Positions 40,750 through 49,312 of a stretch of DNA of 64,000 nt are shown here, in pieces. The translations under genes were made by a program, and so were the position numbers. Position 1 is the stretch's first letter, and each line of letters opens with the position of its first letter. The DNA is from Pseudovirgaria hyperparasitica (taxonomy: Eukaryota): the NCBI GenBank assembly GCA_010093815.1, contig ML996570.1. One strand, written 5' to 3'. The notes beneath the pieces were generated by a model. That model worked only from the letters and a program-made list of their open reading frames with translations. It was not told the origin of the DNA and searched no databases.

Positions 40750-41280
40750 ATGCGCATTCTCAAACTGGTCATAGTGGCCATGGTCGCCATCCTCACACCT
40801 CCGATCTCAGCAACTCCACTCCCCACTACGCAAGATCAATACCTACCGCACCGCGCTCGTGACACATGCCCTTCGACAGGTGGCAATGCCATCGCTGTCA
40901 AAATCTGTACCGAACGCGCCTTCGCTGGATCTTGCCATTACCACAATCCAGGTCCCGAGGGGGACTCGCGGTGCTACAGCGTGACACAGGCTAGCAAGTT
41001 CCCTATCGAACTCACTGGCAAAGGCAACGTACAGTCGATCGAGCCAGACCCACAGACATTGTGTATCGTATATCGTGGGGAAGGATGTGGAGAGGACGAC
41101 GCAGTCAAGGCGCAATATGAGGCGAAAGGAATCGTGGTTGATGGGAACATGATGTGTCCGGGACGGGCTGATATCAGAGAAGAGGATTTGAATGCTATCA
41201 GTTTTAGATGTACAGGAACGGCGGGCAGGGCAGAAGGAGAGACCAAGGATTGGTTGAGAAAGTGGAACCCCACTCAGTAG
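40750..41280 (+). CDS. Small secreted Cys-rich protein, beta/gamma-crystallin-like pattern
   Basis: Signal peptide from MRILKL (40750). Pattern VKICTERAFAGSC..C..VQSIEPD..CIVY..GC..PG..DI..ISFRC. TATAA at ~40644 lies downstream of the ORF-track ATG. Confidence 0.75.
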   Translation: MRILKLVIVAMVAILTPPISATPLPTTQDQYLPHRARDTCPSTGGNAIAVKICTERAFAGSCHYHNPGPEGDSRCYSVTQASKFPIELTGKGNVQSIEPDPQTLCIVYRGEGCGEDDAVKAQYEAKGIVVDGNMMCPGRADIREEDLNAISFRCTGTAGRAEGETKDWLRKWNPTQ

Positions 41281-41603
41281 AAGTGACTGATGAGCTTGAG
41301 GAGGGCAAAGATGGGTAATGACTATGGCAAGTGAAATGATATATGTGAAGCTTATTCATTGGAAAATGGACATAGAGATCTGCATAGGCAAAGAAACCCT
41401 AATTTTGAAAAGCCAAACCTTATATTATTTCTGCGCAGTCTTCGATGCACCTGAATAGCAAGATTTCATAGCTATAAAAGCTGCATAGCGATAGAAGTTC
41501 CATAACAACCAAACATGATGCATTGAAAACTGTAGTACCACGCAATTACAGCCCTCATGACCGTATGTACCGATTTCCCGTAGACACATAACGGACCCAT
41601 CCG

Positions 41604-41837
41604 CTACATAAACGCCCTGGACCTGATGATGCCCCTCAAGCGCCTGAAAGTATTCCTCCGCTGCAACTCCTCGTCGCTGTCATCACTATGGAAAACAAGC
41701 TGTTCATGATTACCGGCTTGTCCGCTCGCACCCCTCTCTAGCACTCTGCCTCTCTCTTCAGGCGCTGCTGAGCCCTGTGCATCGTCTACGTCAACTTCAT
41801 CTTCTACGCGAGCGGCAAGCCTATTTACAAAAAACCC
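41604..41837 (-). other. Candidate -1 ribosomal frameshift cassette: slippery site, stem and 75-codon -1 frame ORF
   Basis: G_GGT_TTT at 41837-41831. Stem arms GGCTTGCCGCTCGC (41821-41808) and GCGAGCGGACAAGCC (41729-41715). The -1 frame is open to TAG at 41606-41604. Confidence 0.6.
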
Positions 41838-44800
41838 TTTGAACCACTAATCTTACGGAGCTCACGACGGATCGATCCAGCCATGATACTGCCTGGACCA
41901 CCAGCGCTGCTCGATGGCCTATCACTACTTCCTGAGAGCCCTGGTAGAGCGCTCGCGTTGCTGACACGTCGGCTCCCTCCATCGCTGCCAGGTACACCCA
42001 GAGCACTTCTACGTTCGACGCGGAGACCTTTCCAGCCTTCGAGTTCGCGTTCGATGCGAGCCGACTTTTCGCGCTCCTCTTTAAGTTCACGTTCGGCGCG
42101 CTTAGCCATGAGTTGGGAAGTTGAATCGGCAGATTGCAACTCGTCAATGGTTTTCAAGAGGTTGCTGATCTTGTCGCGAGCCTTAGCAACATCATCCGCC
42201 AGGGTAGCATTTGCTTTTTCGCGACGTTCGAGTTGCGTTTGAAGATCTTTCACTGTTCGGTCCACATTGCGGACTGATTTCGATTCAGTGGCCCTGACGG
42301 ACTCGACTGACTCGAGTTGTTTTTCGAGCTGTAAATGTGTTAGTGTCCTACGCAACAGATCATAGCCGATGTACTCACCTCCTGAATACGTCCGTGGAGG
42401 AACCGAACGTCTTGACTTGCACGACCTCCCTGTCCTCGAGTCTCAAGGTCGACGAGTTTGAGTTGCAAGTCCTTCATGCTCTTTTCAAGAGCAGCTTTCT
42501 CCTTGTGGAGTTGAACATTGAGGTCTCTTTCTGTTCCGATATCCTTTTGAAGTTCCTGAGCCAAGGCCTCGGACCTTCTCATCTTGCCGACAGCTGCAGC
42601 GACAATGTCTTCCTGCTGAGCAAGGTCCGACTTCAAACCTAACAATTCCTTATCAAAGGCTGCCGCATTGCGCAGAGAAGGCGATTCGCTTTTCGAAAGT
42701 TCGTCGAGACGTTGCGATGCGTCCGCGAGGCGTCTTTCCAGGGTTTTCTTCTCGGTGATAACGTTGTCTCTTTCTGCTAGAGCGTTGTCCATAGAGTTCC
42801 GAAGATGGTTCACCTGTGTCAACAGAGATACAATCTTTGTTTGGGCCTCATTATGCGCACTTGTGGCTTCGTCGCGGGAGTTGGACACATCCTGAAGGGT
42901 CATTTCGAGTCTGGCTTTTTCCTTAGCCCAGGTGGAGCTATTGAGGACCTCGTCGTCCCATTTGCCGCGCAACTCTTCGATCTCATCCCGAAGTCGTCCA
43001 TTCTCCTCGCGAACATAGATGACATTTTCGCGCTCAAGTTCAAGCTCGTGAGTCAAGCTTGACAACTCATGCTGATAGGTCTTACGGGTATGTTCCATAG
43101 AAGTTTCATTATCTTCGATGTCTATCGCGCGTTGGCTGCGGTAGTCTTCGAGCTCGTTTTGCAATCGCTTCTTGGATTGGAGAGCTCCTTCTAGATCCGC
43201 AGACACATCCTCAAGTCGCTCCTCGGACTTTTGCGCCTGGCGCTGCAGGTCTTCGATTATGTCGTCCATCTGCTTGCGTTCAGCCATTATATTGGCACAT
43301 GTCTCTTCTGCTTCTCGAGCTTGACCCTTGGCGAATTGCTCAGCACGTGTAGCTTTAAGGACCGAGATCTCGGCCTGTTCAAGCTTGTTAAAGTATTCGT
43401 CTGCACGCGACTTGTAAAGATTTAGACTTGACTCGACGTCGATAAGTTTAGAGGTCTCCGAATCCAGCCGAATTTGCAGGTCAGAAAACTCCTCAAGAAG
43501 TTGACTATGGCTCGCCGATTCTTGCTCTCTTTCGGAGCGTAGGCTTTCGAGATTTGAGAGCGTGTCGCGAAGTTCCAAATCGGCGGTCTGCTTTGCCTTT
43601 TTGAGCTCGTCGAACGTAGCCTTAGCATCCGCAAGCTCGGATCTCGCATTCGCGCAAGAGTGGGACAGCATTTGCCTGTTTTCTTCCTGAGATTGGATCA
43701 GGTCGTAGAGCTCCTCATGTGACTTCGTCTGAATTTCTTGGAAGCTGAGTTGGCCTGATCTGATACTGCGCTCAAGGGCTGAGATCTGAGCCGAAGAGTC
43801 GTCCAGAAGATTGTGTAATCGAGAGTTCTCTACCTCAAGTTTCTTCTGTCGTCGAAGAGAAGGGCTTTCCTCTCCCCATGTTTGTTTGACAGGCGATCGC
43901 TTCAATTCGTTCTCTAGATGTCGGTTCCGCATCTCACTCATCTGAAGTCTATTTTCAACCTCCTCGAGTTGCGTAGCCATATCCATGCGCTGATTGAAGA
44001 TTGTTGAGTCAACAGTACGGTCTGATCGGCCCGAGTGGTTTGTCGCACTACTCTGGTGACGCTGGTGGAGCGGAGTAGTTGTTGCACTGAAAGGACGTCG
44101 GTTATCAGAGTCCTTCCGTTGATGCTCTGGGGACCGACGAGAGCTTGCTTGATTGACTTGGCTCGCGTTCATCTCCTCGAGCAAAGCTCTCCGAGAATTT
44201 GTATGTCGGCCCTCGATCTCTGAAATCTCACCCTCAAAGCGATCTCGTGCACCGTCGAGTTGAGTCTCGGCCCTTGTGGCCCGTTCGGTGGCTACTCGTA
44301 GGGACTGCTGAGCTGCCTCGAGCTGACGAGCCAGCTCCACGACGTTGGAGATGTCAGGTTTTGCAGCTTCGTAGGTAATAGAGAGATCCGCCTCGGGATC
44401 AAAGACTTTACGAAGAGTCATAAGCTGACCATGAGAATCTGAGAGTTCGCGATTCGCGTTGTCCAATGCCATCTGTACCGCTCGAGTGCTAGACTGCGCT
44501 TGATTGCGTAGCTGTCGTTCTGTCTCTAGCTTTCTATTTGCATCGGCAAGCTGTAGATTGACAGAAGATGAAACTTTCTCAGCGTTTCGGCTTGTTTTGT
44601 GCTCTCTCGTAATCTCGTGATTCAAATCCTCAAGGGCCAAGGAAAGTTTCTCCTTCTGTTTATCGAGTGAAGTGATGTTTATTTGCGCCTCTTGGAGCTG
44701 GCTCTGAAGATATAAGTTCTCCTTCTCTAGTTTGTCCTTCTGTGCTTGTAGTTGGGCCTTTGCAGCCTGAGTTCGCTGGCTGTCGCCCATTCGAGAATTG

Positions 44801-47800
44801 GAACGCGCGATATCCAGGTTCTTTTGCTGAATCTTGTTCAACAAAGTCTTGTTATCGTTTTCGGAGGCTGCAAGTCGACCTTTGACGGTCACAAGTTCGC
44901 GCTCAAGGCGTTGTCTGTTTTGGTCGTGCTGCGATCTAATAGCGTCTGCGGCAGCAACCTTTAGACGTTCCACATCATCGCTCAAACGCATGCACTCTTC
45001 CTCCAATTGCCTGATCTGGCGGTCTTTCGCGTCAAGCTGCTCTTTCAACCCAGCCGACCGTTCCATGGCCAAGCGCGAGGCGGTACGTTGTGCTTCCTGA
45101 TCAGCATCGATTTTGGCTTCTTTCAATTCCAAGTACTCCTGGCGGAGATCATGCAGTTGGGTCTGAATCTCCCTGCGATCTTTGTCGGCCGAATTTTTGG
45201 CTTCTGTTGCTCGTCGTAGGATATCCTGTTGAACGTACATCTCCTTTTCAATGGTGATTTTGGACTCGTTGAGCGAGTCAAAATCTCGCTTTAGCTCCTT
45301 GTACTTTTCCTCTCCGATCATCTCCACATCGTCTCGAGATTGGCGTTCCCGCGCTAAAGAAGACTGGACTTGAAACAGCTCGGCGCGAAGATCATCAATC
45401 TGGCTCTCAAGCATCTTACGCCCCTGGCCAGCCTCTTCATCTTCTGACATCTTGTTTGCTAGAAGCGTCTTTGCATCGGCGGCTTCACGTTCGAGATGAG
45501 ATGCTTGTGATCTCATGGCCTCCATTTCACCTTGCACTTCTCTTAATCGACTTTGAAGATCATCATGTTTCGATGCTAAGGTGCGTTTCTCGCTATCGAA
45601 CAGTTTACGATCTGAGTCATAGTTTTTGAGATCAGTCCTCAGTATAGCGAGCTCGCTCTCTTTGCGTCGAATGAGATCTTCGTAGCTAGTTGACGTAGAT
45701 GAAAGATCGTTCATCTGTTGTCGGATGGAGCGATTCTCTTCCAGGAGCTCTTTGACCTGCCTCTTTGTGTTGGAGAGATCTTTGGTTGAGGCGGCGAGTT
45801 TAATGTCGAGATCTTGATCTGTTTTTAGCAACTTCTCTTCTAGATCCTGGAGCTTACGGTCTTTGAGAGACAACTGAGACTGTAGCATTCGTAGCTCTCG
45901 TGTGAGACTTTCTTCAGCCTCACTGCGCTGCGATTGAGCGTGCTCCAGGTCAGTGAGCTGCTTATTGACTTCGGATATGCGATCGGTGAGAACTGACTTC
46001 TCTGCTTCCAGCCGGCTGATGATCTCGCCTGCGCTTTGAAGTTCCTTCCGCCACGCGTCTGCTTGGCTCTCAATCTGCTTTTTCGCATCAAGTATTTCGT
46101 CAATTTGATCCTCAAGTTTCTCCTGGTCATCTAGAGCCTCGGAGAGCTTCTCAGCCAGTTCGGTCTCGCGCAGTTGGAGGCGCTTGAATATCTCATCCTT
46201 GTCTAAAGCTAGAGCACGTTCACTCTCTAGCGTTTGCTGAATTCGCTGGATCTCTGTCTCGGCTCGTCGACGGTCTTCATCCAGTCGTTGGCGATCTCCG
46301 GCTTCATTCTGCATCCGTTGTTCAAGCGCTTTGATCATCTCGTCACGCTTTTGCACTTCCGCGGCTTGTCGAGTCGCGCCAAGCATTGGCCGCATCATCA
46401 CATACAGCTTCCACCACGGGTTGGCTTGGAGTTTGAGATATACCTGGAAATTCTTTTGGATGATTCTGGTGGCTTCAGCTCGATAGAGGCGTTTATGTGC
46501 AATGCGTCTTTGGATAAATCCTCTAGCGACAGACTGAAAGCGAGACATGATTTCGCGAATGAGCTCATCTCGCTGTTCCTCCAGCTCTGCTAAGACACCA
46601 GCTCGGAAGAACACCTTTGTCAACCCAACACGGTAGAGCGAGCGGTCCAATTTTAGTTTGCCGAGCATGAGCTTGGCGATCTCACGCCCTTCGAGGGGAT
46701 TAGTTGGCATGTCCTTGCAAAGAACTTCATACCGGGTGCGGAACTCTACGAAGGGTAGTCTGTTAGGGAAGCCTGTACGTGCAATTCGAATACCCTCGAG
46801 AACACCGTTGCATCGAAGTTGGTCCAGTACTAAGGGTGCACTGAATTGCTTCGGACGCTTCTTGTGATTTGGAATGATACATCTTACGAAGTGAGGATGA
46901 GTTGAATGTAGTTGTGTCATAAGAGTAGACAGCTGCTCCTTATGCCTTTGAGCGACGGTCCTAAACAAACCTTTCTTAACGCGACTTCGTGCTGCACCCT
47001 GTTCATCATCTGCCTCGACACAGTCAGAGAACAGGTGCGCGATGTGCTTGTCCGATGAGTCAGCGAGAAGTCTTGTGGCGTTGTCATTCATCGGGTCTTT
47101 ATTCTTCTCTAACCAGCCTTCTGTCGAATACTCCACTTCTGCCGCATAGTGAGTAAGAATGAAGCCCTGATTCAAGATCGAACGTCGATACTTTGGTGTC
47201 TTTCGGTCCCAAAGTGAGTTCAGCTTCTCCGTGAAGGTTTTGTCGGTGGCCTTTGGCATAACGCAGTCCTCATCGAGGCACGAGAATATCCCGATCGGAT
47301 TTGAAAGCTCGATCAGGTCGATCGTCGGTTGGAGATCTCTGCCGAAATCGATGAAATTCCACTCGATTTGCTCCCTCGCGTATTCCTCTTGCTCGAGAAC
47401 GAACATGTGATGGTTGAAAAATTGCTGCAATTTCTCATTGGTGAAGTTGATGCAAAGCTGCTCGAAGCTATTTTCGTCGAAGATCTCAAAACCGGCGATA
47501 TCAAGAACACCGATAAAGTGAGAATCATCTGCCCCACCACCACAATCCAATTGTCTGTTGATGCGATTCACGAGGTCTCCAAAACCTCGCTCATAGATTC
47601 CCTTTGCCAGTGCGTCAAGTGTGAGGTTGACCTGCTCCGGTGTTTGCACCTTTTCGACCCATTCTCGACCTGCCTTGACACGTGGGTGTAGCAAAGCCTT
47701 GATAAAAGGGTCCAAGGGAATTCCCAAAAGCTGACACACCTTAGCTGCGTGGGAGCGTGCATCCGTACCAAGAGCTGCCTGATCTGCGCGAATGCTTTCT

Positions 47801-49312
47801 TTTGTCGCTCTTATATTTCCCAAATGCAGGATTGCAGCCATCTTACGGAGTATAGATGTTTGATCTCTTTCCGAGAAACCCATGATATGAAAGGCTTCCA
47901 CAAGTGAGTTCCACTCCTCTTGGTCCGAAACACCTGTGATCGTATCATTACCATGTTTCGTATATTCAAAATCTCCAATGTCAAGGCCGTCAAGAAGAAA
48001 ATCGCGCTTCATTTTTGTACCAGCGCCTTGAAGCAGCTGGTAGAAAATGTGGTAGCTTCGTTCATTCGTGTTGATTCGGACCACGCGCGATTTTTCAAGA
48101 AGATACCAGTCTATGAAAGCTCCAGCTATTTGTCCAGCTCGCGTGAATTCAATCCTTATGAACTTCCCAAAGCGGGAGGAATTATTGTTTCGAACAGTCT
48201 GTGCATTGCCAAAAGCTTCAAGGATCGGATTGGCTCGTAGAATCTGCTCAGATAGATTTGATATATGTCGACCTCCTGATTTCGCCCGTGGTGTATCGGA
48301 AGTAGCAACAGCAGCAAGGTATTGAATGACCTTCTTGGTATTTTCTGTCTTGCCAGCTCCTGACTCGCCTCTGTCTTTCGATTAGCAAAGTTGAAAGAAG
48401 GCCATCACTTGAGCATACGCACGTCACTAATATGCTTTGATTTGCCCCCTCATCCACAAGATTGCGAAAGGCTTCGTCGGCCATGGCAAAAATATGAGGC
48501 TTTGTGTCCTCTCTCCCTCGTCCTTTGTACATGTTGATGTAATCTCTGGAGTATATGGGTAGAGGACAATACGGGTTTACGGTCACCAGGAACAAGCCCG
48601 AATAAGTCTATCCAGATGTCAGCGTCATATTTCAGAGCTAGATCTAAGATTACTTACGTATATGAGATCAGATTGGTACCTCATCTGTAGATTGTGGACG
48701 ACTGATGGTTCATTCAAATGTGTAAGTTCAGCCATGTCATTTGCCTTGTCAAACTTTGCTGGATTAACCTTGTCCACTGCATCTGCGAGAACTTGCCGTT
48801 GCTGAGTATTTTATTAATATGCCACCTGTAGCGCTGTAAAGGGCTCGAGACGCTCGACTTACACTGCCATCTTCACACTGTACCAGCAGCATATCACCTT
48901 CAGACTCTTCTACTACCCATCCGCGAACAAAAGCAGTGCTGGGATCCTTCAGCCAGACGTATCTTTTCCCAGAAAAGTCGTTTTCCCCTTCAATACCACG
49001 GACACTTCCCGTCCCGGTTTCTGCGTCCTCTGTCTTTATAAATTGCGGTGCGAACGTGCCGCCCACGGGGGTTCCATTGCGCAAAGAATGTGACCGCTTG
49101 CGAGCACCATTGACTTCCGTGTTGCTGTCTGCATTTCCGGTTGGAGAGAATGATTGATTTCGCGCATGCGCTGGGACTTGAGTATTGGAGAGCGGAGAGG
49201 ATAGCATGGTGGATTTAGGCCTGTTGCTGAGAGGCATAGGTCCAGGGGAGGGTGATACCCTGCCAAAGGGACTGGTCCTCCACCGTGGACCGTTCTGTGC
49301 TGGAGCGCTCAT
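41825..49312 (-). CDS. myoB: Myosin type II heavy chain, multi-exon
   Basis: SH3-like N domain, [13 protein letters not shown]-loop (spliced), [35 protein letters not shown] motifs, long coiled-coil tail. Introns at ~48862, ~48658, ~48422 and 42378-42329. Ends KGFL*. Confidence 0.97.

Follow-up and report, generated by a model that had tools for sequence, protein, structure and literature searches.

Does the myosin II heavy chain of Pseudovirgaria hyperparasitica have one carboxyl terminus or two? The question is raised by the minus strand of a 64,000-nucleotide stretch of contig ML996570.1 (assembly GCA_010093815.1), referred to below as the window, where the open reading frame (ORF) of this gene ends AAG GGT TTT TTG TAA. 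Its final sense codons form a candidate slip site (41828–41837, minus strand) made of two overlapping in-phase heptamers, G_GGU_UUU (41837–41831) and U_UUU_UUG (41834–41828), followed by the 6-nt spacer UAAAUA (41822–41827, minus strand), which contains the 0-frame stop TAA. An earlier sequence-only reading of the window had pointed to this arrangement as a programmed -1 ribosomal frameshift site, and the phase, strand and coordinates of the heptamers before the stop were verified. The identity of the gene was also borne out: the Pfam family Myosin_head is recognized with an E value of 8.7e-221, over residues 1560–2000 the tail shares 74% identity with class II myosins annotated in Dothideomycetes, and the product has a motor domain, a long coiled-coil tail and orthologues among fungal class II myosins.

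The -1 frame is shut by a TAG three codons upstream of the heptamer and then stays open, reading WFKGFFVNR...IIRSRAFM*. Counted from the slip site (GFFVNR...IIRSRAFM), this ORF (41604–41837, minus strand) has 77 codons and is closed by TAG at 41606–41604, in agreement with the earlier statement that the frame opens near the heptamer behind a TAG. In-frame readthrough past TAA adds just IGLPLA, exactly as had been noted. Tryptic peptides predicted for the -1 product are GFFVNR and VEDEVDVDDAQGSAAPEER. Within the 64-kb window the string TTTTTTGTAA is found a single time, with 0.06 occurrences expected.

Comparison with related fungi, described below, argues that the myosin II heavy-chain ORF ends in a programmed -1 ribosomal frameshift site that has been conserved, and we assign this interpretation a probability of about 0.64. 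Most ribosomes would read ...K-G-F-L and terminate at TAA, while a minority would slip one base back in the course of decoding GGU UUU UUG, their tRNAs re-pairing on U_UUU_UUG and/or G_GGU_UUU, and would continue ...K-G-F-F-V-N-R... for 74 further codons. The ribosome would be paused by the 0-frame stop just 3' of the slip site and by RNA structure beginning 6 nt after it. The predicted product is a myosin II with an acidic stretch and a basic/hydrophobic end, ...RGIIRSRAFM, added to its non-helical tailpiece. To our knowledge, well-supported -1 sites in eukaryotic cellular genes lie almost all in domesticated retroelements, several other claims being disputed, and in fungi only +1 frameshift cases are well established. 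A full-text literature search returned no report of frameshifting in a fungal myosin, and the abstract passage of PMC2753851 does not mention myosin.

The -1 frame and its slip site in relatives

Relatives were represented by 80 fungal loci from metagenome contigs only (81 loci counting the window). The 3' end of the myosin gene was located in 75 of the 80 and in the window, which gave 69 unique ends; 67 of them were counted as readable, the -1 ORF terminating inside the locus. At 39 of these 67 ends the -1 ORF is open at the slip site and finishes with S-x-A-F-[L/I/M]-stop, whereas the ending S-x-A-F-[LIM]* was found in 0/67 ORFs of the +1 frame and in 0/67 readthrough ORFs, and nowhere else in those frames within 700 nt. 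The 39 motif-bearing ORFs vary in length from 12 to 193 codons, and all length differences among them keep the frame. Over their 3127 codons the 0 frame contains 154 stops (39 of which are the genes' own) and the +1 frame 262. The final ~14 residues can be aligned between deep clades (...KRKRTIRVVIRSRAFL, ...GYIRVRALKSEAFL and ...RGTFVVRSEAFL, with ...RNTFRRLRGIIRSRAFM in the window). The conserved basic/hydrophobic C-terminal motif of the window extension, RRNTFRRLRGIIRSRAFM (41607–41660, minus strand), matches ...KRKRTIRVVIRSRAFL and ...GYIRVxxLKSEAFL of relatives, and BLASTP of the window -1 peptide against the -1 peptides of two relatives gave E values of 1e-4 and 2e-4. No Pfam family was found for the extension and no Rfam match in the region 41400–42000. 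A word-index search with the window -1 peptide among proteins of 141–2000 residues, a size range outside which full-length myosins fall, gave no matches, and a HMMER search of representatives returned just one spurious repeat protein (P0124).

From codon 18 onward, that is past the slip site and the hairpin described below, the ratio of non-synonymous to synonymous change (pN/pS) of the -1 ORF was 0.19–0.75 in 21 pairs and lay below both shifted-frame controls in 20 of them, as estimated from alignments built on the -1 protein and for this reason biased toward that frame. Judged by these sequence comparisons, the -1 ORF evolves like coding sequence. An ORF maintained in orthologues, which the sequence-only reading had proposed to look for, was found: it bears the conserved C-terminal motif, and without exception it lies in the -1 frame and is open from the slip site onward.

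The slip site accompanies this ORF. A perfect in-phase heptamer is present at 37 of the 39 ends whose -1 ORF is conserved, versus 0 of the remaining 28. Both heptamers occur at 24 of the 39 ends, U_UUU_UUR only at 12, G_GGU_UUY only at one (L043, where GGT TTT ATC leaves a run of just four T, yet G_GGU_UUU intact) and neither at two. The 28 ends lacking the motif read GGG TTC TTG, GGG TTT CTG, GGC TTC TTG, AGT TTC TTG, GGG TTT TTG and similar. In the tails of the same genes the share of GGT among Gly codons is 26%, that of TTT among Phe codons 31% and that of TTR among Leu codons 20%, and the frequency of NNT-TTT-TTR expected from codon usage is ~1.6%. What is directly observed is a site and an ORF that are conserved and occur together. 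Of the two heptamers U_UUU_UUR has the wider conservation, which makes it the more likely place of the shift; G_GGU_UUU, which had been put forward as the slip site of the window, is indeed there and in phase, but it is the overlapping heptamer that relatives keep most widely.

Synonymous-site conservation, another check suggested by the sequence-only reading, was estimated in a Pleosporales-like set of 15 unique loci by counting how often two loci that encode an identical residue use different codons. For the last four codons this was so in 0/91, 0/91, 0/105 and 14/105 pairs, while codons -12 to -5 differ synonymously in 28–85% of pairs and the upstream block in 2048/4016 (~51%). Synonymous change is thus suppressed exactly at the slip-site codons, which in this clade are nearly frozen.

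Phylogenetic distribution was followed in a weakly resolved tree of the last exon comprising 90 rows. The window adjoins Lasiodiplodia and Diplodia there, with a support of 93 in the Shimodaira-Hasegawa-like approximate likelihood ratio test (SH-aLRT). Motif loci cluster with Alternaria-, Nothophoma-, Mytilinidion-, Venturia- and Zymoseptoria/Zasmidium-like rows; loci without the motif include Aureobasidium-like rows and all rows grouping with lichen-forming or other non-Dothideomycete references. On this tree at least 5 changes are needed for the motif trait and at least 7 for the heptamer trait.

Two side observations concern the ends of the two frames. Among the 28 loci without the conserved -1 ORF, 24 (e.g. 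L022, L030, L037, L053 and L071) still end in TTG or TTA, although TTR accounts for only 17–20% of Leu codons; this bias could go back to a slip site since lost or to a separate stop-adjacent constraint. The end of the 0 frame in the window (..S-x-K-G-F-L*, 41825–41836) resembles the end of the -1 ORF (..S-x-A-F-L*, 41604–41615), as it does also in L038, L076 and L034, and in several loci the likeness extends to DNA (GGT TTT TTG TGA versus GCG TTT TTG TGA). The end of the extension may be a duplicate of the gene's own 3' end.

Downstream RNA structure and the weight of the evidence

The stem proposed for the window by the sequence-only reading has its 5' arm, GGCUUGCCGCUCGC, at 41821–41808 and its 3' arm, GCGAGCGGACAAGCC with one bulged A, at 41729–41715 (both on the minus strand). 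It starts 9 nt past G_GGU_UUU, which is 6 nt past U_UUU_UUG. Both arms are present, and ViennaRNA predicts 12 of the 14 proposed pairs in the minimum free energy (MFE) structure as well as in the centroid, in folds of 131 nt and of 208 nt. The shorter fold has an energy of -43.7 kcal/mol with a z-score of -2.87, and 1 of 200 shuffles was equally stable. As to the hairpins that had been placed within the loop, GCCU..AGGC belongs to the MFE structure but CAGG..CCUG is absent from it.

Another structure was found in relatives. All 15 Pleosporales-like loci have a common 9-bp hairpin, GGGAYCUC...GAGRUCCC, which starts 8 nt past U_UUU_UUG and is recovered by RNAalifold unprompted. In this hairpin 93.3% of cells are paired versus 30–66% with slid partner columns, and compensatory changes affect three pairs. 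Its loop GAGGGGAGGGG is G-rich, almost invariant and encodes SEGRG in the -1 frame (L001–L035 subset, alignment A2, columns 28–38). Compensatory changes sought on the advice of the sequence-only reading do therefore exist, but in a hairpin that is not the long-range stem of the window. In sum, predicted pairing 6 nt past U_UUU_UUG in the window and the hairpin at 8 nt in the Pleosporales-like loci are accompanied by nothing convincing elsewhere.

A number of observations weigh against the frameshift interpretation. In the window, the 208-nt fold is overall unremarkable (z-score -0.61, 51 of 200 shuffles equally stable), the stem is a long-range pairing that encloses a 78-nt loop, the first 60 nt past the stop contain no local hairpin (z-score +1.09), and the hairpin of Pleosporales type is absent. 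For the clade with AAA GGT TTT TTA RNAalifold gave just a 4-bp hairpin with no covariation, and for the mixed loci with short extensions no structure. The covariation in the Pleosporales-like hairpin is real but modest: 6 of 500 shuffles reach its 5 double-change cells and 105 of 500 its 3 pairs. Across all loci, the region past the stop folds more stably in those with the conserved -1 ORF than in those without it (-16.7 versus -11.4 kcal/mol, p 6e-6), but z-scores against shuffles do not differ between these groups (p 0.51), and the gap in stability is therefore largely due to (G-rich) base composition. The slip site has its own exceptions, L039 (GGC TTT TTG) and L078 (TCG TTT TTA), in which the -1 ORF persists although the heptamer is imperfect; besides, G at position 7 of a heptamer is a poor A-site context in eukaryotes. 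The frame bias of the pN/pS alignments belongs here too. Supported branches of the tree provide only 3 independent contrasts between the heptamer and the -1 ORF (sign test, p 0.5), and the association is therefore not established with phylogenetic correction. Finally, the trans-frame protein is a predicted product, for which comparative support is strong, though short of proof, and the RNA side is known from assembled contigs alone. The frameshift proposed by the sequence-only reading is thus backed by the comparative tests, while the stem offered in its favor is not shared with the relatives at hand, all of them too distant for judging it by covariation.

Slippage, splicing or an untranslated frame

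The transcript of the window gene was followed in assembled contigs from the RNA runs X1 and X2 (one sample of one study; 7927 and 7755 nt, respectively). Such contigs drop rare isoforms and are silent on transcript ends, expression levels and rare transcripts with seven U. Both of them lack the 50-nt phase-0 intron GTGAGT...ACTAAC...CAG (42329–42378, minus strand) and are therefore derived from spliced RNA. From 42328 they run colinearly with the genome to 41450 (X1) or 41538 (X2); the T-run shows no indel and there is no other joint, and the prevailing mRNA therefore retains TAA, the T6 run and the entire -1 ORF. The sequence-only reading had named two findings that would speak against it, a poly(A) site upstream of 41715 and entry into the -1 frame by splicing. 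Neither was seen: no such poly(A) site is used in the X1 and X2 assemblies, which extend well beyond 41715, and the assembled transcripts are unspliced across the stop.

Among other explanations, the one that survives best is transcriptional slippage, in which RNA polymerase II would add one U within the T6 run, and minority U7 mRNAs would encode ...KGFFV..., i.e. the same protein. An uninterrupted T6 is the most widely conserved feature of the site (36 of the 39 loci that keep the -1 ORF), no convincing downstream structure is seen in clades whose extensions are short, and rare U7 transcripts cannot be revealed by RNA contigs. On the other hand, slippage of polymerase II needs runs longer than six, and the contigs that were assembled carry T6. 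Moreover, L043 retains the -1 ORF with T4 only but with G_GGU_UUU intact, T5 runs are common where the -1 ORF is lost, and the hairpin is kept in 15 loci at 8 nt, which is the classic spacing of a ribosomal stimulator. We therefore regard polymerase slippage as an unlikely source of the extension.

Alternative splicing seems to us slightly less probable still. In this case a short intron or an alternative terminal exon would remove the KGFL stop and join the tail to the downstream ORF, the unspliced form being the major isoform. The window does contain a frame-correcting GT..AG pair of plausible length (GTAAGA at 41856 to TAG at 41804, 53 nt), contigs can miss rare isoforms, and introns lead into the extension in four public gene models. 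However, both RNA contigs are unspliced here though the upstream intron is removed. Scans confined to introns of 42–250 nt with a donor within the last 150 nt found frame-correcting donor/acceptor pairs in 11/39 loci versus 12/39 and 17/39 in the wrong frames, while 28/39 have none; with a branch site required, frame-correcting pairs fall to 0/39. An intron would hardly fit, if at all, into extensions of 12–28 codons, the shortest of which has 12 codons (L066, DFFIGLRSTAFL*). Splicing also fails to explain why the synonymous sites of GGT TTT TTG are frozen, why the frame that opens at the slip site is invariably -1 and why the ORF disappears where the heptamer does. Neither a conserved frame-correcting donor, branch site and YAG acceptor nor, in the RNA contigs, a corresponding junction was found that would mark a spliceosomal intron or an alternative terminal exon. 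The 53-nt candidate intron 41856–41804 was rejected, as it is retained in the RNA contigs and lacks the CTRAY branch site that the real intron has.

The gene models themselves deserve attention. Most annotated models longer than 2300 residues end ...KGFL or ...[ST]FL. Four of 120 public models (P0010, P0020, P0060 and P0070) include an acidic extension ending ...RKRTIR(V/I)(V/I)IRSRAF(L/I), the same ending as in the -1 ORF of the window, and a search with this extension found no further full-length models. They enter it by four different junctions at orthologous positions, which counts against genuine splicing, and P0060 reads ...KGFF before its junction. Probably these introns are annotation artefacts of predictors that forced an intron in order to reach a coding frame.

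Very improbable is the remaining option, that the -1 ORF is untranslated, its conservation reflecting an RNA element of the 3' untranslated region (UTR) or shared ancestry and the heptamer being a by-product of coding K-G-F-L: it may draw on the relatedness of the loci with their few independent contrasts, on the largely compositional stability past the stop and on the status of the extended protein as a prediction, but does not account for an amino-acid motif kept at the exact ORF end across deep clades despite very different DNA and ORF lengths and found in none of the 67 ORFs of each of the other two frames, for an excess of synonymous over non-synonymous change in the -1 frame only, or for indels that all preserve the frame over up to 193 codons.

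Known systems, possible role and remaining features

Programmed -1 frameshifting, the interpretation that we prefer, is best known from viruses and retroelements, whose canonical cassette is exemplified by the gag-pol site G_GGU_UUA of the yeast L-A virus. The myosin site shares with them the in-phase X_XXY_YYZ heptamer, the spacer of 6–8 nt and, as predicted features, a downstream stem-loop and a fixed minority of C-terminally extended fusion protein. It differs in that the gene is an ordinary chromosomal cytoskeletal one and the extension is a short tailpiece rather than an enzyme. Besides, the slip site is formed by the last two sense codons, so that the 0-frame stop falls within the spacer, and the downstream structure varies between clades. 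Mammalian PEG10 and PNMA/Ma3 are domesticated retroelements with inherited -1 frameshift sites. Like them, the myosin gene is a cellular gene with a phylogenetically conserved -1 site and a longer isoform, both in our case predicted, but unlike them myosin II has no retroelement ancestry, and its slip site must therefore have arisen de novo.

In yeast cellular genes (EST2, CDC13 and others) -1 signals have been proposed that lead to premature stops and mRNA decay. They also combine a heptamer with structure in fungal cellular mRNAs, but their shifted frames are short dead ends with little phylogenetic support, whereas in myosin the shifted frame is conserved past the regular stop codon as a putative coding extension. 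Animal myosin II tailpiece isoforms, such as smooth-muscle SM1 and SM2, are produced by alternative splicing. There, as predicted here, two heavy chains differ only in the extreme C-terminal tailpiece, but in the fungal myosin splicing signals were tested and not found conserved. A further comparison is offered by antizyme, with its +1 frameshifting in fungi, protists and animals (PMC1874602). Antizyme resembles the myosin case as conserved recoding in a fungal cellular gene at a codon adjoining the 0-frame stop, and differs by its +1 direction, its independence of a slippery heptamer, its function as a polyamine sensor and a shifted frame that encodes most of the protein.

As to function, one can speculate, by analogy with the alternative tailpieces of animal myosin II, that at the septation ring the short and long isoforms would engage in different tail-tail or tail-partner interactions. 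A wider scenario may be composed from these elements, though as a whole it looks doubtful to us. An ancient -1 frameshift would have arisen de novo in a housekeeping cytoskeletal gene, would have been kept in most Dothideomycetes and lost repeatedly together with the slip site. The ratio of short to long myosin II would be set by termination versus slippage and would respond to termination capacity or stress; it could follow this competition because the shift occurs on two codons adjoining the stop. The extension would restore a terminal basic-small-Phe-Leu motif after an acidic spacer, and a second, regulated form of the contractile-ring motor would result.

If the frameshift is real, it offers a clean and testable -1 case in a genuine cellular gene, in fungi and with comparative support across a class. 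Most public Dothideomycete models of myosin II would then lack an isoform, and the few that include the extension would use invented introns. The natural series of clades with the hairpin, clades without it and lineages that have lost the site could reveal the joint evolution of a frameshift signal and a new C-terminus.

The remaining parts of the gene lie on the same strand. First exon(s) are situated further upstream of the large exon (42379–48381, minus strand), which, according to its open frame, Pfam match and identity, encodes the motor domain from profile position 92 and the coiled-coil tail. The signals of the intron that follows it (42329–42378; GTGAGT, ACTAAC and CAG) are textbook fungal ones and are supported by the RNA contigs. 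The last 0-frame coding exon (41825–42328, minus strand) contains 167 codons and the TAA stop (41827–41825), and its KGFL end is common to most annotated orthologues. Overlapping this stop is UGUAAAUA (41822–41829, minus strand), which matches the PUF/Pumilio core UGUAnAUA; it is not kept in Pleosporales-like loci, which have UGUAGUAG. The 3' UTR left after the -1 ORF occupies 41450–41603 (minus strand), as delimited by the contig ends at 41450 (X1) and 41538 (X2). RNA contigs downstream of the myosin gene (41000–41330) have a depth of ~3–6 versus 88 and 229, and the gap between contigs at ~41331–41449 is consistent with a transcript end.
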